Of a stretch of 44,534 nt of DNA, positions 775 to 44,376 are shown piece after piece. A program made the translations under genes and the position numbers. The stretch is from Vectrevirus LI10P3. Below the pieces are notes generated by a model. The model did not search any database and was not told the origin of the DNA. It saw only the letters and a program-made list of their open reading frames with translations. Numbering within the stretch: position 1 is the first letter of the stretch; each line of letters begins with the position of its first letter. The stretch lies in sequence record OZ035807.1; one strand, 5' to 3'.

Positions 775-2659
775 AGAATCACAGGCAGAGGCATTAAAGC
801 GGTGGGAAAACCTTAAAGAACTACAAGACACTTTTAAATATACAGCGGAAGGTTTGCTTCTCTTTGCAGATACAGTTATTCATAACTTAATTGCAGGCAA
901 CCCTCATCTGATTCGTATGCAGGCGGATATCTTGAAGTTCCTATTTTACGGACACAAGTACCGCCTCATCGAAGCGCCTCGTGGTATCGCTAAGACAACA
1001 CTATCAGCAATCTATACGGTATTCCGTATTATTCATGAACCGCATAAGCGTATCATGGTTGTGTCCCAAAACGCCAAGCGAGCAGAGGAAATCGCAGGTT
1101 GGGTAGTTAAAATCTTCCGTGGCTTAGACTTTCTTGAGTTTATGCTGCCGGATATCTACGCTGGGGACCGTGCATCAGTTAAGGCGTTTGAGATTCATTA
1201 CACCCTACGTGGTAGTGATAAGTCTCCTTCTGTATCCTGTTACTCAATCGAAGCAGGTATGCAGGGTGCTCGTGCTGATATTATTCTAGCGGATGACGTA
1301 GAGTCGATGCAGAATGCTCGTACGGCAGCGGGCCGTGCCTTGCTTGAGGAGCTGACTAAGGAGTTTGAATCTATCAACCAGTTTGGGGATATCATTTACC
1401 TTGGTACACCTCAGAACGTAAACTCTATCTACAACAACCTACCTGCTCGTGGTTACTCTGTTCGTATCTGGACTGCGCGTTACCCTTCAGTAGAGCAAGA
1501 GCAATGTTATGGCGACTTCCTTGCACCTATGATTGTGCAAGATATGAAGGACAACCCAGCACTTCGCTCAGGGTACGGGTTGGATGGTAATAGTGGTGCA
1601 CCTTGTGCCCCTGAAATGTATGATGATGAAGTCCTGATTGAGAAGGAAATCTCTCAGGGTGCTGCTAAGTTCCAGCTTCAGTTCATGCTTAACACTCGCA
1701 TGATGGATGCTGACAGATACCCATTACGCCTGAACAATCTAATCTTCACCTCGTTTGGTACAGAGGAAGTCCCTGTGATGCCTACGTGGAGTAATGATTC
1801 CATAAACATCATTGGTGATGCACCTAAGTATGGTAACAAGCCTACGGATTTCATGTACAGACCTGTAGCTCGCCCATACGAATGGGGTGCTGTCTCCCGC
1901 AAGATTATGTATATTGACCCTGCGGGTGGTGGTAAGAACGGAGACGAGACGGGTGTAGCCATCGTATTCCTGCACGGCACATTCATTTATGTGTATCAGT
2001 GCTTTGGTGTACCTGGCGGATACCGAGAGTCGTCCCTGAATCGCATTGTGCAGGCCGCAAAGCAGGCGGGTGTTAAAGAGGTATTCATTGAGAAGAACTT
2101 TGGTCATGGCGCGTTTGAGGCGGTAATTAAGCCGTACTTTGAACGAGAGTGGCCTGTAACTCTGGAAGAGGATTACGCCACCGGACAGAAAGAGTTGCGT
2201 ATCATTGAGACGCTGGAGCCGCTCATGGCAGCACATAGGCTTATCTTCAATGCAGAGATGGTGAAGTCAGACTTTGAGTCGGTACAGCACTATCCGCTTG
2301 AACTACGCATGTCCTACAGTCTTTTCAATCAAATGTCGAACATAACGATTGAGAAGAACAGCCTCCGGCACGATGACCGCCTAGACGCCCTGTATGGCGC
2401 TATACGGCAATTAACTTCTCAGATAGACTATGACGAGGTTACACGGATTAATCGCCTCAGAGCGCAGGAGATGCGCGATTACATCCATGCTATGAATACA
2501 CCTCATCTACGCAGGGCAATGCTATATGGAGATTACGGTACTGAGCGAAGAGTGACCAACACTTCCGTAGCGATGCAGCAGCGAGTTTACGGGCAGAACT
2601 ACCGAAATAAATCGGCAAGCAGAAATACACTTTCTGCAAGGATTTCAAGGACTTATTAA
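761..2659 (+). CDS. terminase large subunit (T7 gp19-like)
   Basis: 632 aa from ATG 761 with AAGGAG RBS; Walker-A-like EAPRGIAKTT near N-terminus; size and position conserved. Confidence 0.85.
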   Translation: MAKARESQAEALKRWENLKELQDTFKYTAEGLLLFADTVIHNLIAGNPHLIRMQADILKFLFYGHKYRLIEAPRGIAKTTLSAIYTVFRIIHEPHKRIMVVSQNAKRAEEIAGWVVKIFRGLDFLEFMLPDIYAGDRASVKAFEIHYTLRGSDKSPSVSCYSIEAGMQGARADIILADDVESMQNARTAAGRALLEELTKEFESINQFGDIIYLGTPQNVNSIYNNLPARGYSVRIWTARYPSVEQEQCYGDFLAPMIVQDMKDNPALRSGYGLDGNSGAPCAPEMYDDEVLIEKEISQGAAKFQLQFMLNTRMMDADRYPLRLNNLIFTSFGTEEVPVMPTWSNDSINIIGDAPKYGNKPTDFMYRPVARPYEWGAVSRKIMYIDPAGGGKNGDETGVAIVFLHGTFIYVYQCFGVPGGYRESSLNRIVQAAKQAGVKEVFIEKNFGHGAFEAVIKPYFEREWPVTLEEDYATGQKELRIIETLEPLMAAHRLIFNAEMVKSDFESVQHYPLELRMSYSLFNQMSNITIEKNSLRHDDRLDALYGAIRQLTSQIDYDEVTRINRLRAQEMRDYIHAMNTPHLRRAMLYGDYGTERRVTNTSVAMQQRVYGQNYRNKSASRNTLSARISRTY

Positions 2660-2680
2660 TTACTGGACACTATAGAAGGA
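2655..2680 (+). promoter_or_regulatory. phage RNAP promoter
   Basis: ATTAATTACTGGACACTATAGAAGGA directly after the terminase stop; matches 13-copy consensus. Confidence 0.7.
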
Positions 2681-2816
2681 AGGCCCAGATAATAAGAGAA
2701 AATAATAGGTAATATATAGTTTAACCTAGGTTATATAGGTATGCCTTAGTATGGGTGTACTCCTGTACACCCTATTCCTTACTACCTTACTATATTTACA
2801 TAATAGGAGAGAGACA

Positions 2817-3095
2817 ATGGCTAATGATTATAGTAGTCAACCATTAACAGGTAAGTCTAAGAGAAAGCAGGTACAACCTGTAAGTGAAGAACTAATGCTT
2901 CCGGTAATCAAAAAAGAGGAAGCTAGTAAGAAAAGCAATGTCATTAATGATGCCACCAAATCAGGTAAACAGAAAGGGGCCATGGTGTGCCTTGAAGTGG
3001 AAGGTGGTATATTGAAGATTGCTATCGCGGTTGATGGCAAAGAAGATTCAGAGTGGAAGTTAGTAACAGTGGAACCAGCTGTTAACCCAGTTTAA
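2817..3095 (+). CDS. hypothetical protein, paralog A
   Basis: ATG 2817 with AGGAGAGAG RBS; shares the block SGKQKGAMVxLE...L(K/H)IA(I/V)A with the next ORF. Confidence 0.6.
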   Translation: MANDYSSQPLTGKSKRKQVQPVSEELMLPVIKKEEASKKSNVINDATKSGKQKGAMVCLEVEGGILKIAIAVDGKEDSEWKLVTVEPAVNPV

Positions 3096-3113: not shown

Positions 3114-3401
3114 ATGGCTAAATATGGTACTACAGGTTCTGTTACTGGTCAGGCTTTTCGAGTAAAAGCAGTACAAACTATTGCAACGGCAATCCCGATG
3201 CCTGTTGTTAAAGAAGCAGACCTTAATAGTAAAGATCACCCTATCAACATCAAACATTTATCAGGTAAACAGAAAGGTGCAATGGTTGCTCTTGAGAAAA
3301 GTGACACAACCTTACATATTGCTGTTGCACGTGGTAGTGAACCAACAGACCCTTGGGATTTAACTGGCATGGAATCGCTCGCTGTCACTCCAGCAGGTTG
3401 A
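3114..3401 (+). CDS. hypothetical protein, paralog B
   Basis: ATG 3114 with TAAGGAGGAAG RBS; clear sequence similarity to 2817..3095 (LSGKQKGAMVALE). Confidence 0.6.
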   Translation: MAKYGTTGSVTGQAFRVKAVQTIATAIPMPVVKEADLNSKDHPINIKHLSGKQKGAMVALEKSDTTLHIAVARGSEPTDPWDLTGMESLAVTPAG

Positions 3402-4296: not shown

Positions 4297-4325
4297 TACA
4301 TAGCTTTATGTATCAGTGTCTTACG

Positions 4326-4349
4326 ATTTACTGGACACTATAGAAGAGG
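4326..4349 (+). promoter_or_regulatory. phage RNAP promoter
   Basis: TTTACTGGACACTATAGAAGAG upstream of tailspike 1. Confidence 0.7.
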
Positions 4350-4427
4350 TAAGATAGCGCCGTTCTTTTGAGCGGCCTATTACTAGCCAATCTTCATAGG
4401 GAGGGTTGGAAAGTAATAGGAGATAGC

Positions 4428-6326
4428 ATGGCTAAATTAACCAAACCTAATACTGAAGGAATCTTGCATAAAGGACAATCTTTGTATGAGTACCTTGATG
4501 CGAGAGTTTTAACATCAAAGCCGTTTGGTGCTGTAGGTGACGCCACTACTGATGATACGGAGGTTATAGCTGCTTCATTAAACTCTCAGAAAGCTGTCAC
4601 AATCTCAGACGGTGTATTCTCTAGCTCTGGTATTAATAGTAATTACTGTAACTTAGACGGTAGAGGTAGTGGGGTGCTAAGTCACCGTTCCAGTACAGGT
4701 AATTACTTAGTATTTAACAATCCACGTACAGGTCGCTTAAGTAATATTACGGTAGAAAGTAATAAGGCGACTGATACAACTCAGGGACAGCAGGTATCTC
4801 TTGCCGGTGGAAGTGATGTTACTGTAAGTGACGTTAACTTCTCAAACGTTAAAGGTACTGGTTTCAGTTTAATCGCATACCCTAATGATGCGCCACCTGA
4901 TGGACTTATGATTAAAGGTATTCGAGGTAGCTATTCAGGCTATGCTACTAATAAGGCAGCTGGATGCGTACTTGCTGACTCCTCAGTTAACTCCCTCATA
5001 GATAACGTCATTGCTAAGAACTACCCTCAGTTCGGAGCAGTAGAGTTGAAAGGTACAGCCAGTTACAACATAGTCAGTAATGTTATAGGGACAGATTGCC
5101 AGCATGTAACTTACAACGGCACTGAAGGGCCAATAGCTCCTTCTAATAACCTTATCAAGGGGGTGATGGCTAATAACCCTAAGTATGCAGCGGTTGTTGC
5201 AGGCAAAGGAAGTACGAACTTAATCTCAGACGTGCTAGTAGATTACTCAACTTCTGATGCTAGGCAGGCTCATGGTGTTACCGTAGAAGGGTCTGATAAC
5301 GTCATAAATAATGTGCTTATGTCAGGATGTGATGGTACTAACTCTTTAGGACAAGGGCAGACTGCTACAATTGCACGCTTTATAGGTACAGCTAATAACA
5401 ACTATGCGTCTGTATTCCCTAGCTACAGTGCTACAGGTGTTATTACTTTCGAATCCGGCTCTACCCGTAACTTCGTAGAGGTAAAGCACCCTGGCAGGAG
5501 AAACGACCTTCTCAGTTCTGCTAGTACTATTGACGGTGCAGCTACTATTGACGGCACTAATAATAGTAACGTAGTGCACGCACCTGCCTTAGGGCAGTAC
5601 ATAGGTAGTATGTCAGGTAGGTTCGAATGGCGGATTAAGTCCATGTCACTCCCTTCAGGCGTTCTTACTTCTGCTGATAAGTACAGAATGCTTGGGGATG
5701 GTGCTGTATCATTAGCTGTAGGTGGTGGTACTTCTTCTCAAGTTCGCCTATTTACTTCTGATGGTACTTCTCGGACAGTGGCCCTCACCAACGGTAACGT
5801 GCGTCTTTCTACCAGTAGCACAGGCTATTTGCAGTTAGGTGCTGATGCAATGACCCCAGATAGTACTGGTACATACGCATTAGGTTCCGCCAGTCGAGCA
5901 TGGTCTGGCGGTTTTACTCAAGCAGCATTCACTGTTACCTCAGATGCTCGGTGTAAAACAGAACCTCTTACTATCTCAGATGCCTTACTGGATGCTTGGT
6001 CTGAAGTTGACTTTGTGCAGTTTCAGTATTTGGATCGTGTTGAGGAGAAGGGTGCAGACTCAGCTAGATGGCACTTCGGTATCATCGCTCAGCGAGCTAA
6101 GGAGGCTTTCGAACGTCACGGTATAGATGCACATCGCTATGGCTTCTTGTGCTTCGACAGTTGGGATGATGTATACGAGGAAGATGCCAATGGCTCTCGT
6201 AAACTGATTACACCAGCAGGTTCCCGCTACGGTATTCGTTACGAGGAAGTACTGATATTAGAGGCTGCGTTGATGCGGAGGACTATCAAGCGTATGCAGG
6301 AAGCACTAGCTTCCCTGCCTAAGTGA
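4428..6326 (+). CDS. tailspike 1: beta-helix depolymerase with C-terminal intramolecular chaperone (peptidase S74-like) domain
   Basis: ATG 4428 with GGAGA RBS; N-terminal FGAVGDATTDDTEVIAA is the pectate-lyase-fold signature; C-terminus has SDARCK followed by LDAWSEVDF...WHFGIIAQRAKEAF, as in endosialidase / tail-fibre chaperone domains. Confidence 0.8.
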   Translation: MAKLTKPNTEGILHKGQSLYEYLDARVLTSKPFGAVGDATTDDTEVIAASLNSQKAVTISDGVFSSSGINSNYCNLDGRGSGVLSHRSSTGNYLVFNNPRTGRLSNITVESNKATDTTQGQQVSLAGGSDVTVSDVNFSNVKGTGFSLIAYPNDAPPDGLMIKGIRGSYSGYATNKAAGCVLADSSVNSLIDNVIAKNYPQFGAVELKGTASYNIVSNVIGTDCQHVTYNGTEGPIAPSNNLIKGVMANNPKYAAVVAGKGSTNLISDVLVDYSTSDARQAHGVTVEGSDNVINNVLMSGCDGTNSLGQGQTATIARFIGTANNNYASVFPSYSATGVITFESGSTRNFVEVKHPGRRNDLLSSASTIDGAATIDGTNNSNVVHAPALGQYIGSMSGRFEWRIKSMSLPSGVLTSADKYRMLGDGAVSLAVGGGTSSQVRLFTSDGTSRTVALTNGNVRLSTSSTGYLQLGADAMTPDSTGTYALGSASRAWSGGFTQAAFTVTSDARCKTEPLTISDALLDAWSEVDFVQFQYLDRVEEKGADSARWHFGIIAQRAKEAFERHGIDAHRYGFLCFDSWDDVYEEDANGSRKLITPAGSRYGIRYEEVLILEAALMRRTIKRMQEALASLPK

Positions 6327-6333
6327 GAGACAG

Positions 6334-6358
6334 GCAGTGCGTAAGCACTGCTTTTCAC
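6334..6358 (+). terminator. hairpin between tailspike genes
   Basis: GCAGTGC-GTAA-GCACTGC perfect 7-bp stem followed by TTTTCAC. Confidence 0.4.
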
Positions 6359-6411
6359 GCAACTTTTCTTAAAGGTTATCATGGTGGTAGCCTTTCAGAA
6401 GAGGAGGTTAC

Positions 6412-8124
6412 ATGCTTCAAAGATTAAGTGCTTACTTGGTGAAGTACAAGAGTAAACTAACAGGTACTATTGAGCGCCTGCTATCTGATAAACTATCGGA
6501 TACAATAGATGTTGCGGATTTTGGAGTTACTCCATCTTCCAATGACAACAGGCAAGCACTTCAAGCTGCGTTCAATGCAGTCAGAGTGTTAGGCGGTGGC
6601 ACTGTATTAGTCACTAAAGCTGGCGAATATAAACTCAGTGGTACTGTTGAGATATTTGCTAATACACACTTCAAGGTTGCTAAAGGTGTAACATTTGTAC
6701 GTGACTACGAAACAGGAGATACGCTATTCAGATTATCACAAGGGCAAGCTAGTAATGTAACAGTCAGTGGAGGTATCTATGAAGGCAATGGTCACACTAA
6801 GGGAGATACACCTTTTGTAGTATTTGCATCTACTAGTAATAATGATTTGAAGTTTGAAGGCATAACAGTTAACAATGTAGTGGACTACCACGCCATAGAT
6901 TTAGCAGATTGGAACAACGTAGTTATTCGTGATTGTAAATTCCTAGGTTTTAAGAATACAGGCAGTCGTAACTTCTCAGAGGCTATACAGTTAGACCCAG
7001 GTCTTATTACAGTTGGTCACTATGTACAGTCAAGTGGTATGCTGGTGGAGAATTGCTATGCTGGTCCAAACACAGAATCAGGGTTTGGAGGTTATGGTGC
7101 ACTAATTGGAAATCACGCCTCAGCTTACGGTGTACAGGACAACAATATCCGTATCTTGAATTGCACTACAGATGGTGCTCTCTTTGCAGGTGTACGTGTA
7201 TTTAACTGGAAAAACTGGACAGTGCGTGGTTGCACATTTAGGAACTCTAATGCAAGAGGTGTTCATGTTACACCTGTTTCCTCTCAAACTAAACCGCAAG
7301 GAACTCGACAAGGTAGTATTGTAGATTGTACTTTTGATGGCGTAAGAACACCAGTGCTAATTGCTGCACCATCTTGGCCTTTTACCGATATTAGTGACAT
7401 TTGGCATGACCATATTGAAATTTCTAATAATACTATGATCCTCACAGAGGATGTATCCTATGGTGTAGATGCAAGGTGGTGTAAGAATTTAATTGTAAAA
7501 GGTAATACAGGCTCTGGTGGCTTAGGGTTAATCGGTTTACGCTTTGGGACAAAATACCACATCGAAGGTAATACTTGGGAAAACGGAAGAGGTAGTGGGA
7601 TTTGGTTAGGTGAGTCTGATGCTACTACATTCATTGGTACTGGATTATCGGGCGAAGGTATACTTAGTCGTAATATCCTCTCTAAATTAGGGCAATATGG
7701 TATTCATGTAAACTGCAAGGTTGGCGGTCTAGTGATTAAGGCTAATAATATGAAGGAAGTGTCTACAGCTGAAGCAGGTAGGCGCTTCATTAGCATAGAC
7801 ACAGGAGCTAACAACATCCTAGTAGAAGGTAATATTGGAGTAGATGGAGAAAGCCCTAACAAGCCAAGCCTTGGTATTCGTGTTACTTCTTCTTGTTCCA
7901 ATATTAAACTCATTGGCAATGATTGCTATGGTACACAGGCGCCTCAGAATAACCAAGGAGTCGGTTCTAGTACGGTGATTGTTTATGGACTAAATGGCAA
8001 TCCTACAACTTTAGGCGTAGGTGCACCTGTAGGCTCTTTAGCAACTGATATCAATGGGTCTGGTGGTAGTACATTGTACGTTAAAGAATCTGGTACATCT
8101 GCTCAAGGTTGGGTTGCAAAGTAG
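6412..8124 (+). CDS. tailspike 2: beta-helix depolymerase-like
   Basis: 570 aa, AGAGGAGG RBS; N-terminal VADFGVTPSSNDNRQALQAAFNA pattern typical of pectate-lyase-fold tailspikes; no C-terminal chaperone domain. Confidence 0.75.
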   Translation: MLQRLSAYLVKYKSKLTGTIERLLSDKLSDTIDVADFGVTPSSNDNRQALQAAFNAVRVLGGGTVLVTKAGEYKLSGTVEIFANTHFKVAKGVTFVRDYETGDTLFRLSQGQASNVTVSGGIYEGNGHTKGDTPFVVFASTSNNDLKFEGITVNNVVDYHAIDLADWNNVVIRDCKFLGFKNTGSRNFSEAIQLDPGLITVGHYVQSSGMLVENCYAGPNTESGFGGYGALIGNHASAYGVQDNNIRILNCTTDGALFAGVRVFNWKNWTVRGCTFRNSNARGVHVTPVSSQTKPQGTRQGSIVDCTFDGVRTPVLIAAPSWPFTDISDIWHDHIEISNNTMILTEDVSYGVDARWCKNLIVKGNTGSGGLGLIGLRFGTKYHIEGNTWENGRGSGIWLGESDATTFIGTGLSGEGILSRNILSKLGQYGIHVNCKVGGLVIKANNMKEVSTAEAGRRFISIDTGANNILVEGNIGVDGESPNKPSLGIRVTSSCSNIKLIGNDCYGTQAPQNNQGVGSSTVIVYGLNGNPTTLGVGAPVGSLATDINGSGGSTLYVKESGTSAQGWVAK

Positions 8125-8135
8125 TAGGAAGTTGA

Positions 8136-8285
8136 ATGCCATTAATCAAATCAGTTAAGCAAAGTGCTGTACACCAGAACACAGAAGAACTCATTCAATC
8201 AGGACGTGACCCTAAGCAAGCCTATGCGATTGCCAAGGATGTACAACGTCGTGCTATGAAGAAACCTTCTGCATCTTCTGCGTAA
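8136..8285 (+). CDS. hypothetical small protein
   Basis: 49-aa ORF (MPLIKSVKQSAVHQ...) with AGGAAG RBS; no recognisable motif. Confidence 0.3.
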   Translation: MPLIKSVKQSAVHQNTEELIQSGRDPKQAYAIAKDVQRRAMKKPSASSA

Positions 8286-9131
8286 GCAGGTTAATATCTT
8301 AGTGTACACAAGGGCAGACCTAGGTTTGCTCTTAGTGTATTTACAATGGAGGTCTTATGTATATACCTATGGAAGCAATAGTAGGTTGCCTATGCTTGTT
8401 GATAGGTTTCGTTATAGGCTTACTAGTAAATCCTTAGTCCTGTACAAGGATTAACCAAAGTCAAAATTTTAATATAGGCGTGTGTGAGGTGTCTCGCCCT
8501 CGCCCTCGCCGGATTTCCCCCATATGGGGCCGCGTTGCGGTTGGCTTGGGAATTGGGCTGGGCTGGTCCGTCTTCGACGGGTGGGCCGAGGTCTGCCGAG
8601 GCTTGCTCTTAGTGGGAGCACAAGGAGAACGCCTAGGAAGCGCTAGGGCACGCCTTAGTATTGGACAAGGTGATTGCCTTAGTGAAGCCTCTTAGTGCAT
8701 TCCTGAGGTCATTCAGGGCGCTTATGAGGGATTGACAGGGTGGATGGGCGTGGGCTATCTGTTCGTTTCGTTCACTCCGCTTGCGCTACGTTCACTCGCT
8801 CACGTGTACCTTAGGTTATTCCTTGATGGATAGCTTAGGTTAGCCTTAGTGGATTACCTTAGTTAAAGCCTTAGTGCTTCACTTAGTATCAGCTTAGTAG
8901 TGTACCTTAGTAAGTATTAGTGTCTTCTCTTAGTGATTGCACATGCAAGCATGTAAGATGCCATTAGGTCGCGGTCGGTAGACCGCTAAAGAAGGAGAAT
9001 AGTAATAAGATGCAGTAGGAGGAACACCAGAAACCTAGCCAACCTAGCCTATCCTAGCTCTGTATCTATTGCTTTTCCTTAGTCTAACATGTGAGACAAC
9101 CTAGATTTATCTTAGTGATGATATCTTAGTG

Positions 9132-9160
9132 TTGACAAGGCCATCTCAATATAATACTAT
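9132..9160 (+). promoter_or_regulatory. candidate host sigma70 early promoter
   Basis: TTGACA - 17 bp - TACTAT read directly. Confidence 0.4.
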
Positions 9161-43200: not shown

Positions 43201-43414
43201 GGCTGGCTTTCAGACTAAGGGTTTGATAGACCAAATACCACTAGTAGGTGTTGGTCAAGATGCATATCGTTTAGCAGATTCTATAACTAAATATGCAGAG
43301 GGTGATACAGAAGGTGTAGATGTGGCACGTAGGGCTTTACGCTTAGTGCCTCTAACTAATGTAATAGGAATCCAGAACGCATTGCGTTATGGCTTAGATG
43401 AACTGGAGGATTGA
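40217..43414 (+). CDS. internal virion protein (large, T7 gp16-like)
   Basis: 1065 aa; last of the three ejection-protein genes before the tail-fibre adaptor. Confidence 0.7.
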   Translation: MEQDIKTNWAGYVQSTPEPFSIEAAPVSAPTIRQRNELQEQVLEAKADADILGAVGAAFQNEWLAFGGKRWYDRATADFTPQPDFEIQPEQREALRFKYGTDMMQTITEGVRSEDELNFRIQNADEDLERNKRIAQAGWVGSVATIGAAVLDPVGWVASIPTGGAAKVGLVGRAVRGAIAAGVSNAAIESVLVQGDMTRDLDDIMVALGSGMAMGGVIGAVARGRATKLSEQGDDRAASIVRSADAGDRYVRAVADDSIGAMRVKGEEVLTEGAFDISSKGEDLLKTLQREGNSIDMTPRRWAGTMSALGTVVHSSHDASVRGLGARLFESPQGLGMQKASASLMQNTNLNRLKSADMNRFNDGFDLWLKENNINPVAGHTNSHYVQQYNEKVWEAVRIGMDESTPKSIRMAAEGQQAMYREALALRKRSGEAGFENIKADSKYMPDIFDTMKARRQFDRIGKDIDKEDIIELFSRAYQNGARKIPKEVADEIARAQVNRVVDATLTGRMSFEKAMSGQTKAEYEAIMRKAGFSDEEIEKMVEALDNKETRDNISNRAKMSLGLDVTQEYNGIRMRDFMNTNVEELTDNYMKEAAGGAALARQGFSTYQAALNAIDLVERNARNAAKDSKASLALDEEIRQMREGLRLIMGKSIDVDPQALSTKMLRRGRDITGVLRLGQMGFAQLGELANFMGEFGIAATTIALGKQFRFTSKALRSGDGFFRDKNLAEVERMVGYIGEDNWLTTKGARPDEFGDVTTVKGMMAHFDQSMNSIRRAQTNLSLFRMAQGSLERMTNRQIALSFIDHLEGKKIIPQKKLEELGLTQEFVTNLQKHYDANSKGSGLLGFDTMPYAMGETLANAIRRKSGLIIQRNFIGDEGIWMNKALGKTFAQLKSFSLVSGEKQFGRGIRHDKIGLAKKTAYGFALGSIVYAAKAYVNSIGREDQDEYLEEKLSPKGLAFGAMGMMSTTAVFSLGGDFLGGLGVLPSELVQSRYEAGFQTKGLIDQIPLVGVGQDAYRLADSITKYAEGDTEGVDVARRALRLVPLTNVIGIQNALRYGLDELED

Positions 43415-44376
43415 TGAGTTATACTTTCACAGAACATATAGCCAACGGTACGCAAGTAACCTATCCCTTTAGATTTGCTGGCAGGGATAAAGGCTATCTT
43501 CGTGCCTCAGATGTGATAGTGGAATCTCTTCAAGGTAACACTTGGATTGAGGTTACATCTGGCTGGCAACTAACTGGCACGCACCAGATTACTTTTGATG
43601 TAGCACCAGTTGCAGGTTTGAAGTTCCGTATTCGAAGGGAAGTACAAAAGGAGTATCCATACGCTGAGTTTGACCGTGGTGTTACCTTGGATATGAAGTC
43701 TTTAAATGGTTCTTTCATTCATATACTGGAGATTACACAGGAGTTACTTGACGGGTTTTATCCAGAAGGATACTTCATTAAACAGAATGTAAGCTGGGGC
43801 GGCAATAAGATTACTGATTTGGCTGATGGCACAAATCCTGGAGATGCAGTAAATAAAGGGCAGCTTGATGCCATCGACAAGAAGCATACAGATTGGAACG
43901 CCAAACAGGATATTGAGATTGCTGGCCTTAAGGCTGGTATGACTTCTGGTATTGCGCACAGAACTGTTCCTTGGTACACGATAGCCAAAGGTGGTGAGAT
44001 TTCCGTAAAACCACCTTATGAATTTCAAGATGCACTAGTTTTCCTTAATGGGGTATTGCAGCACCAAATTGTAGGCGCATACTCTATAAGCAACAACACT
44101 ATCACTTTCGCAGAGCCGCTTGTGGCGGGTACAGAGGTGTATGTGCTGATGGGTAGTCGTGTGGCTACATCTGAACCTAATATTCAGTTAGAGTTGAACT
44201 TTGACTTAGTAGAAGGCCAACAAGTAGTACAGATTGGCTCTGCATTTAAGTACATTGAGGTCTACCTTGATGGATTATTACAACCTAAACTTGCTTATCA
44301 GGTAGACGGTGACATTGTTACTTTCTCAGAGGGAGTGCCAGAATGCCGGATGACTGCTAAGATTATCACAGCATAA
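43414..44376 (+). CDS. tail-fibre N-terminal adaptor protein (T7 gp17 N-domain-like)
   Basis: 320 aa; N-terminus MSYTFTEHIANGTQVTYPFRFAGRDKGYLRASDVIV resembles the T7 gp17 tail-attachment domain pattern; lacks a receptor-binding C-terminal part. Confidence 0.65.
   Translation: MSYTFTEHIANGTQVTYPFRFAGRDKGYLRASDVIVESLQGNTWIEVTSGWQLTGTHQITFDVAPVAGLKFRIRREVQKEYPYAEFDRGVTLDMKSLNGSFIHILEITQELLDGFYPEGYFIKQNVSWGGNKITDLADGTNPGDAVNKGQLDAIDKKHTDWNAKQDIEIAGLKAGMTSGIAHRTVPWYTIAKGGEISVKPPYEFQDALVFLNGVLQHQIVGAYSISNNTITFAEPLVAGTEVYVLMGSRVATSEPNIQLELNFDLVEGQQVVQIGSAFKYIEVYLDGLLQPKLAYQVDGDIVTFSEGVPECRMTAKIITA

Follow-up and report, generated by a model that had tools for sequence, protein, structure and literature searches.

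A K1-5-like tailspike pair of a Vectrevirus: a K5 capsule lyase homologue and a probable K2 capsule spike

Two-spike systems of K1-5-like phages

The two-spike system of the coliphage K1-5, which reportedly goes back to the work of Scholl in 2001 and Leiman in 2007, includes the gp37 adapter, the gp46 K5 lyase and the gp47 endosialidase of 811 aa. K1-5 is known to carry both spikes on each virion adapter (Leiman 2007, as cited in PMC5380687). The phages related to the locus described here include: (i) LL11, vB_EcoP-101101UKE1, vKMB47, Sem1-4, 6948/6949, EEc2/EEc4, EC120, vB_Ec-G9 and LI10_P3/P5, which keep the same pair of spikes at 96-98% nucleotide identity over 3.9 kb and show point differences only, (ii) the T147_P1, P7, P9 and P10 Vectreviruses, which have the same adapter/slot system and cassette borders and keep the second spike (spike 2), but hold an O6-type spike of 630 aa in slot 1, and (iii) the T205-type Vectreviruses, which also share the adapter/slot system and cassette borders and keep the K5 lyase, but have another slot-2 spike and a host range of K5 and K7.

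The pair of spike 1 and spike 2 is found in 17 records of phages and spike 2, with or without this partner, in 21, across which it is 93-99.6% conserved. The papers on LL11, vKMB47 and Sem1-4 describe two K1-5-like tail proteins or depolymerases (PMC6687929, PMC11162368 and PMC13005862), and the LL11 genome announcement (PMC6687929) reads the pair in the same way as is done here; a receptor of spike 2 is not assigned in any of the three. As the pair has been sequenced and published as K1-5-like, the two-spike arrangement and this exact pair of spikes are already known. The finding as originally put, in a sequence-only reading of the locus, is the textbook K1-5 adapter with two spikes, and the receptor of spike 2 is the useful remainder.

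Organization of the locus

The window, which is the whole stretch of 44,534 nt that was analysed (OZ035807.1), is a circularly permuted genome of a Vectrevirus (K1-5-like). An adapter gene and two adjacent spike genes are found near the right genome end (Table 1), and the genus, the gene order near this end and an SP6-type promoter are shared with K1-5. The adapter and spike 1 are 98% and 99% identical to their K1-5 counterparts, respectively, and the slot-2 N-terminal peptide is conserved. By contrast, the endosialidase that occupies slot 2 of K1-5 is replaced in the window by a 570-aa beta-helix spike without a Peptidase_S74 (S74) domain. The interval from 4326 to 8124 is considered likely to be an exchangeable receptor-recognition module of the K1-5 type, in which the KflA spike is paired with a spike most likely directed at K2.

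Table 1. Features of the spike locus and its adapter, with positions in the window.
Feature	Position	Strand	Remarks
SP6/K1-5-type phage RNA polymerase promoter	4326..4348	+	perfect ATTTACTGGACACTATAGAAGAG match, upstream of spike 1
Spike 1, K5 capsule (heparosan) lyase KflA / K1-5 gp46 homologue, 632-aa precursor	4428..6326	+	
Intramolecular chaperone Peptidase_S74, C-terminus of spike 1	5940..6326	+	PF13884
Stable hairpin and U-run, terminator-like	6332..6356	+	between the spike genes; also the right-hand limit of the slot-1 cassette
Spike 2, LL11-type right-handed beta-helix tailspike, 570 aa	6412..8124	+	probable K2-capsule spike
Slot-2 address peptide of spike 2, ~30 residues	6412..6510	+	putative adapter-docking segment
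Small conserved ORF, 49 aa	8136..8285	+	3' of spike 2, K1-5 gp48 position
Terminal direct repeat, single collapsed copy	8494..8757	.	marks the physical genome ends
Adapter, K1-5 gp37 homologue, 320 aa	43414..44376	+	315/320 identical to K1-5 gp37; would carry both spikes

The interval starts at the first base of the promoter (position 4326), and SP6/K1-5-type promoter matches number 8 in the window (<=3 mismatches) compared to 0 in 100 shuffles. The hairpin between the spike genes has a folding energy of -16.8 kcal/mol (z -3.6), with equally stable structures in 0 of 200 shuffles, and is annotated as a terminator in the LL11 record; homology to the T147 phages restarts at its first base (6332). 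A 150-nt CDS follows spike 2 at the matching place in LL11, K1-5 and KMB47. K1-5 aligns with its left end from 8494 onward and with its right end up to 8757, boundaries that are approximate as mapped, with the K1-5 terminal repeat itself being 234 bp. The linear relatives EC120 and EEc2 begin at ~8758 and ~8632, respectively. Based on the terminal repeat and on these starts, the spike genes stop ~630 bp before the right end; thus, the earlier placement of the spikes at the genome end is correct for the physical genome and incorrect for the window.

The adapter and its two slots

The adapter has a Phage_T7_tail domain (the T7 gp17-type N-terminal domain) at residues 3-153 and no receptor-binding body. 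Among the three proteins, this domain is found only on the adapter, with no Phage_T7_tail match in spike 1 or spike 2 by Pfam search. The separate adapter gene and the two spikes devoid of a T7 gp17-type attachment domain, both of which had been read from the letters of the DNA, are in this way borne out.

Comparison to K1-5 and the T147 phages reveals slot-specific N-terminal peptides that are conserved while the spike bodies swap. In spike 2, this peptide is the sole stretch shared with the endosialidase gp47 of K1-5 (MLQRLSAYLVKYKSKLTGTIERLLSDKL vs MIQRLGSSLVKFKSKIAGAIWRNLDDKL), and the DNA homology to K1-5 reaches 6465 and restarts at 8130. As the endosialidase is replaced within this break, the second specificity is not K1. 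The locus is a clean natural example of a system in which each of two slots is exchanged independently. By analogy with K1-5, the gp37-type adapter would reside on the tail and provide two docking sites, into which the spikes may plug by short N-terminal address peptides (MAKLTKP... for slot 1 and MLQRLSAYLVKYKSK... for slot 2), such that both spikes would be displayed on the virion.

Spike 1, a K5 lyase with an S74 chaperone

The spike 1 gene starts at the ATG at 4428, while the TTG at 4368 merely extends the mechanical ORF. The encoded protein is identical to K1-5 gp46 at 625 of 632 residues (99%) and is matched by phrog_14895 from end to end. Comparison to known depolymerases, which the sequence-only reading had proposed, reveals a match of residues 1-505 to the PDB entry 2X3H, 'K5 lyase' (E=0, 1074 bits). 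2X3H is said to be KflA of the coliphage K5A, reported by Thompson in 2010; nothing notable differs between the two, and the window gene encodes the uncleaved precursor. By these matches, spike 1 is the K5 heparosan lyase KflA, and the mature spike would degrade the heparosan K5 capsule via beta-elimination.

The C-terminus of spike 1 includes a PF13884 domain at residues 505-565 (E 1.5e-14, 54.4 bits vs the 22-bit gathering cut-off). The motif SDARCK forms residues 505-510, with the TCA codon of Ser505 at 5940-5942 and the codon of Lys510 at 5955-5957. The domain aligns to the chaperones of phi29 gp12 (3GUD), endoNF (C-terminal domain, 3GW6) and T5 pb1 (4UW8), which are of the same type and have a Ser and a Lys five residues apart at the domain start, after a C-terminal stalk. 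The phi29 gp12 chaperone chain starts at SDERHK, which is homologous to SDARCK, and S505-D-A-R-C-K510 is also aligned with the corresponding positions of endoNF (S911A chain). In 2X3H, the solved structure of mature KflA, the chain has Ser505 as its very last residue. This end, the PF13884 match and the Ser505/Lys510 pair agree with the S74-like chaperone, SDARCK motif and serine codon at about 5940 that had been predicted. The Ser-Lys pair of spike 1 presumably has the role of Ser911/Lys916 of endoNF. The spike 1 trimer would fold with the aid of this chaperone, which may then cleave itself after Ser505 via the Ser505/Lys510 pair to form a mature spike of ~52 kDa. For K1-5 ORF46, a protein of 67 kDa with a mature form of 52 kDa is described (review PMC5380687). 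S74 is on a lyase body in spike 1, compared to a sialidase in endoNF, an appendage that degrades teichoic acid in phi29 gp12 and a fibre in T5 pb1.

Spike 2, a beta-helix spike with P22-type relatives

Spike 2 matches the Pfam Beta_helix domain (E 4e-10), which together with the 2X3H match of spike 1 upholds the claim of two distinct beta-helix tailspikes. Spike 2 appears unrelated to spike 1 and would fold without an S74 chaperone; PF13884 has no match in spike 2 even at E up to 1. The pectate-lyase N-terminal signature that had been ascribed to both spikes is apparent by eye (FGAVGDATTDDT; DFGVTPSSNDNRQALQAAF) but does not score as PF12708 (Pectate_lyase_3), which is not detected in spike 1 (E<=0.01) or spike 2 (E<=1); of 13 spike 2 relatives, 3 match this model, all of them distant.

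A PDB sequence search with spike 2 gives nothing beyond PfbA (E 2e-9) and a borderline match to a pectate lyase, neither of which indicates function; residues 33-86 are a weak match to the pectate lyase 5OLP (E 0.56). PfbA of Streptococcus pneumoniae (3ZPP/4MR0), the AlgE4 A-module (2PYG) and the tailspike of the cyanophage Pam1 (7EEA) are 14-23% identical to spike 2, are of other biology and do not act on a glycerol-phosphate capsule. The nearest relatives outside the Vectreviruses (45-52% identity) bear P22 Head_binding or Tail_spike_N domains, and a C-terminal motif of ~40 residues (GAPVGS...LYVKESGT..GWVAK) is common to spike 2 and its P22-type relatives. The distant relatives are found in phages of Bacillus, Staphylococcus, Streptomyces and Arthrobacter, where they are tailspikes. 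Across relatives of 24-52% identity, the polar residues H160, D163, E190, Q193, D195 and H235 are (near-)invariant, and this cluster suggests a catalytic site in spike 2.

Host range and the receptor of spike 2

LI10_P3 and LI10_P5, the closest relatives, were isolated on LI10 (ST131, O25:H4, K2, not K5), and the isolation hosts of the spike-2 carriers are K2-capsulated, namely LI10 (O25:K2) and CFT073 (O6:K2). vKMB47, which has the K5 lyase and spike 2, lyses CFT073 (K2), whereas vKMB14, which has the same K5 lyase and another second spike, does not; in the vKMB47 record as deposited, a 55-nt tandem duplication breaks spike 2 and makes the vKMB47 evidence weaker, unless the duplication is an assembly artefact.

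A host-range panel of ~400 strains, with K types assigned in silico and scores tallied by eye, provides counts for the T147 and T205 relatives, not for the phage in hand: T147_P10 and T147_P9 score on 9 of 10 K2 strains vs 28 of 391 others (Fisher p 1.7e-9), or on 7 of 10 vs 5 of 391 (p 2.9e-10) when strains that the O6-type Kayfunavirus T147_P5 lyses as well are left out. The T205 phages, which have a 98.5% identical K5 lyase gene and another second spike, score on 15 of 19 K5 strains vs 8 of 382 others and, as phages with the K5 lyase but without spike 2, on 0 of 10 K2 strains. Several points weigh against a K2 assignment. Of the seven K2 positives that are not confounded, five are at the lowest score (1), which could represent clearing without productive infection. 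The K2 strain NILS75 is negative, and five non-K2 strains show the same scoring signature (B49, IAI74, BE and two ST131 strains of the untyped ABC class '5'). The Sem1-4 phages have identical spikes and can be plated on Klebsiella aerogenes ATCC 13048. A further caveat is possible cross-contamination among phage stocks propagated on the same host.

Among these relatives, K2 strains are infected by spike-2 carriers, whatever the O type, and not by phages that lack this spike, with many of the scores weak. Based on the K2 isolation hosts, the T147 scores on K2 strains and the lack of such scores for K5-lyase phages without spike 2, the second spike is probably a K2 capsule spike. The proposal of two polysaccharide receptors and a K1-5-like dual specificity is supported in that spike 1 is the K5 lyase of K1-5 and the published host data point to K5 and, most likely, K2. 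Spike 2 would most likely bind and depolymerise the K2 capsule, and the phage would reach K5 and K2 extraintestinal E. coli.

Alternative readings of spike 2

Most P22-type beta-helix spikes recognise O-antigen/LPS, and the Head_binding and Tail_spike_N domains of the closest non-Vectrevirus relatives are typical of the O-antigen spikes of P22-like prophages; thus, spike 2 could recognise an O-antigen or LPS (e.g., O25b or O6) and not a capsule. CFT073 and T147 are both O6, and the T147 phages lyse several O6 strains. However, LI10 is O25 and not O6, the O6 range of the T147 phages follows the Kayfunavirus T147_P5 and a slot-1 spike family from O6-isolated phages, and the K2 strains that score are O1, O4, O75, O107, O25 or untypable. 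These points make an O-antigen or LPS receptor quite unlikely. O6 specificity is rejected, as the slot-1 spike of the T147 phages is not the K5 lyase and has kin in phages of O6 hosts. O25 specificity is also rejected: LI10_P3 has a score of 0 on BDX19 and LM36, two further strains of ST131 O25:H4, both of which are lysed by the O25b phage LM33_P1, and the O25 strains ECOR-15, ECOR-52 and ECOR-54, which have no capsule, are not lysed by the T147 phages.

That spike 2 targets another polysaccharide that co-occurs with in silico K2, or is a binding-only adhesin, is unlikely but conceivable given that the association signal consists mostly of low scores and that spike-2 carriers also hit K. aerogenes and the two strains of ABC type '5'. 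Against this stand the conserved polar cluster, suggestive of catalysis, and the haloed plaques of vKMB47 and Sem1-4, although these halos could stem from the K5 lyase on K5 hosts. A vestigial, non-functional spike 2 that rides along while the K5 lyase alone is used has a precedent in K1E, in which one slot holds an inactive remnant, a truncated slot-1 protein (PMC5380687). Such a passenger role is highly improbable for spike 2, which is full length, shows 93-99.6% conservation in 21 records with differences at other places, persists where slot 1 holds another spike (T147 phages) and is carried by phages isolated on the non-K5 hosts LI10 and CFT073.

Spike 2 and the K2 polymer

Assignment of spike 2 to K2 would aid host-range prediction from phage genomes as well as the choice or engineering of therapeutic phages, by cassette swaps at the mapped borders, and would provide an enzyme that strips a teichoic-acid-like capsule. 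K2 is among the commonest capsules of uropathogenic and bloodstream E. coli and is found in CFT073 and part of ST131. The literature searched yielded no characterised depolymerase for E. coli K2; the review PMC12488582 does not include K2 in its list of E. coli K antigens for which phage depolymerases are known, and spike 2 is not covered in this review or in PMC9913540. The K2 polymer is composed of glycerol-phosphate and resembles wall teichoic acid (PMC10156666, PMC8262930), with which a K2 spike whose distant relatives are on Gram-positive phages is consistent. It is possible, if tentative, that spike 2 is the first coliphage depolymerase for K2/K2ab poly(galactosyl-glycerol-phosphate) and is kin to the teichoic-acid-directed tailspikes of Gram-positive phages; unlike the lyase or classical glycanase of the known E. 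coli capsule spikes, such an enzyme may use a phosphodiesterase-type or unusual glycosidase mechanism based on His160/His235 and the Asp/Glu cluster.

Relationship to known adapter and spike systems

In every feature tested, the tail system of the window is a member of the K1-5/SP6 family, in which an adapter carries two spikes. The spike 1 and spike 2 pair, encoded in slots 1 and 2, has already been described as two K1-5-like tail proteins or depolymerases by Markuskova et al. (PMC11162368) and in the Sem1-4 paper (PMC13005862); thus, the two-spike finding is correct but known. The useful point that remains is the probable specificity of spike 2 for K2, a teichoic acid-like capsule of Escherichia coli. 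While slot 2 of K1-5 encodes the endosialidase gp47, slot 2 of the window encodes a beta-helix spike without a Peptidase_S74 (S74) chaperone domain.

The sequence-only reading placed two distinct beta-helix spikes within 4326-8124, one of them ending in an S74 chaperone domain, and a separate adapter gene elsewhere in the window. All of these are located where it put them (table below). Promoters of the SP6/K1-5 type, one of which opens the interval, number eight in the window versus none expected.

Features of the spike region and adapter (window coordinates unless stated otherwise)
Feature	Coordinates	Description
SP6/K1-5-type promoter	starts 4326	perfect match
Spike 1	4428-6326	632 aa
Hairpin and U-run	6332-6356	stem 6332-6353, then UUUUC; between the spike genes
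Spike 2	6412-8124	570 aa; Beta_helix match
Conserved small ORF after spike 2	8136-8285	49 aa
Adapter	43414-44376	T7 tail-fibre N-terminal domain; 315/320 identical to K1-5 gp37
T147 slot-1 spike	1136-3028 of record L005 (OZ035774.1), likewise in L004 and L006	replaces window 4441-6332

Genome and physical ends

The 44,534-bp window corresponds to the whole genome, circularly permuted, of a podophage of the K1-5 type (Autographiviridae, Molineuxvirinae, Vectrevirus). In total, 101 phage records match 4300-8200, and 17 of them cover this interval in full at 96-98% identity (including LL11, 101101UKE1, vKMB47, Sem1-4, 6948/6949, EEc2/EEc4, EC120, vB_Ec-G9, LI10P3 and LI10P5). Outside the interval the closest genomes are Vectrevirus LI10P3 and LI10P5 (~97%), and OZ035735, a record labelled Vectrevirus LI10P3, has spike 2 at 6412-8121, with coordinates as in the window. 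The terminal repeat of K1-5 is 234 bp; the left end of K1-5 aligns from window 8494 onward and the right end up to 8757; thus, the window contains the repeat as a single collapsed copy. The first bases of the linear relatives EC120 and EEc2 correspond to window 8758 and 8632. From these mapped ends, the spike genes stop ~630 bp short of the physical right end, and their earlier description as lying at the genome end is biologically correct. Around the collapsed terminal repeat (8294-9143), short (C)TCTTAGTG-type repeats recur and are possible components of the concatemer junction or early region. A G+C-rich stretch lies nearby at ~8480-8700. Two neighbouring small ORFs upstream of the peptidase gene (2751-3095 and 3114-3401; 114 and 95 aa) are paralogous and have a common SGKQKGAMV..E motif; in LL11, the annotation of their counterparts is a likely duplication.

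Spike 1

Judged by its sequence, spike 1 is a K5 heparosan lyase: it is identical to K1-5 gp46, the KflA-type K5 lyase, at 625 of 632 residues, and the solved KflA structure 2X3H matches residues 1-505 (E=0). The newer PDB entry 9VVR has the same body with ~240 additional N-terminal residues, and its alignment begins at residue 31 of spike 1; thus, spike 1 is without a tail-attachment domain of its own. The C-terminus classifies as a bona fide S74 chaperone, with a Pfam Peptidase_S74 match at residues 505-565 (E 1.5e-14), and its last 127 residues align to 3GUD (phi29 gp12), 3GW6 (endoNF) and 4UW8 (T5 pb1). The SDARCK motif, noted earlier with its serine codon at about 5940, comprises residues 505-510, with the Ser505 codon at 5940-5942. 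The chaperone domain 3GUD begins with SDERHK, and Ser505 is the last residue of the mature 2X3H chain. Ser505 and Lys510 are spaced by five residues as in the S74 catalytic pair, and presumably form that pair by correspondence to endoNF Ser911/Lys916. By analogy, spike 1 would cleave itself in this phage. A review gives K1-5 ORF46 as a 67 kDa protein with a mature form of 52 kDa (PMC5380687), a difference consistent with loss of the 127 residues.

Spike 2

Spike 2 resembles the K1-5 endosialidase gp47 in its first ~30 residues only, and DNA homology between the window and K1-5 ends at 6465 and restarts at 8130. Across the 17 full-interval records and four T147 records (21 in all), the body of spike 2 is 93-99.6% identical. 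Its family is large (819 clusters, E up to 1e-3). Spikes 45-52% identical to it bear P22 Head_binding or HK620-type N-terminal domains, and tailspikes of Bacillus, Staphylococcus, Streptomyces and Arthrobacter phages have 24-33% identity to its N-terminal half. The AlphaFold2 model is a right-handed beta-helix (pLDDT 84, pTM 0.86) with the last ~60 residues poorly defined. The pectate-lyase N-terminal Pfam model is reached via distant relatives only, and no S74 domain was found in spike 2 by Pfam. H160, D163, E190, Q193, D195 and H235 are invariant or almost so among relatives and form a candidate active site.

Modularity of the spike slots

Both slots are modular. The T147 Vectreviruses keep spike 2, but their homology to the window breaks off at 4441, in codon 5 of spike 1, and restarts at 6332, and their slot 1 encodes an unrelated 630-aa spike with the N-terminus MARLTRP. 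This swap is a clean cassette exchange at one slot. Each slot thus combines a conserved address peptide of its own at the spike N-terminus with conserved flanks, in agreement with the two attachment sites presented by gp37 (PMC5380687). The T147 slot-1 spike is probably an O6-antigen spike: its relatives occur in phages whose isolation hosts are O6 strains (536, CFT073, ATCC 25922 and LF31), and the Kayfunavirus T147_P5 bears a relative of 43% identity. The strong hairpin between the spike genes (-16.8 kcal/mol, z -3.6) is a terminator in the LL11 annotation. It lies at the border where the slot-1 cassette recombines and could set the ratio of spike 1 to spike 2 expression.

Receptor of spike 2

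No receptor assignment for spike 2 was found in the literature searched. Published host data were used instead. The strain counts for the T147 and T205 phages come from the 403 x 96 matrix published by Gaborieau et al. (bioRxiv 10.1101/2023.11.22.567924), tallied by eye and with K types assigned in silico. LI10_P3, P4 and P5 were isolated on LI10, an ST131 O25:H4 strain with an ABC capsule typed as K2, not K5. The O25 antigen is ruled out as the receptor of spike 2, since LI10_P3 scores zero on two further strains of ST131 O25:H4, both lysed by the O25b phage LM33_P1.

The K2 range goes with spike 2 rather than with the K5 lyase. CFT073 (O6:K2) is lysed by vKMB47, which has the K5 lyase and spike 2, and is not lysed by vKMB14, which has the same lyase and another second spike. 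T147_P10 and T147_P9 both score on 9 of 10 K2 strains versus 28 of 391 non-K2 strains (Fisher p 1.7e-9). The T147 phages and T147_P5 have a set of O6 hosts in common; limited to strains that T147_P5 fails to lyse, the tally is 7/10 K2 versus 5/391 others (p 2.9e-10). The scoring K2 strains are O1, O4, O75, O107, O25 or O-untypable and of phylogroups B2 and D. The T205 phages, with the K5 lyase and another second spike, lyse 15 of 19 K5 strains (p 3e-18), five of six K7 strains and none of the ten K2 strains. These T147, T205 and vKMB patterns indicate that each spike brings its own host set. Spike 2 is therefore probably K2-specific; any particular chemistry for it is much less probable. K2 is a galactose/glycerol-phosphate polymer (PMC10156666), a type that agrees with the distant kinship of spike 2 to spikes of Gram-positive phages and serves as a lead rather than a test.

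Several observations weaken the K2 reading. Of the seven unconfounded K2 positives, five are at the lowest score; NILS75, although of type K2, is negative, and the same signature is seen in five strains of other types. The matrix counts come from the T147 and T205 relatives, the columns of the LI10 phages being truncated, and cross-contamination of phage stocks grown on one host is possible. In the vKMB47 record (L008; vB-Eco-KMB47, OR424385.1), spike 2 is broken into ORFs of 57 and 556 aa by an exact tandem duplication of 55 nt at 2540-2649, which corresponds to window 6515; this is either an assembly artefact or a true frameshift in a phage for which lysis of CFT073 is reported. The spikes of the Sem1-4 phages (PV717788, PV775410, PV775411 and PV775413) are 98-99% identical to the window spikes, and these phages also plate efficiently on Klebsiella aerogenes ATCC 13048; such plating suggests either a polymer similar to K5 or K2 on the surface of this strain or another route of entry.

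Although strain T147 is typed as K5, T205_P4 and T205_P5, which have the K5 lyase, fail to lyse it (Supplementary Table 3 of Gaborieau et al.). On several K5 strains that are not O6, the T147 phages and T147_P5, all without the K5 lyase, have weak scores of 1-2 (rows T147, IAI72 and K5 strains).
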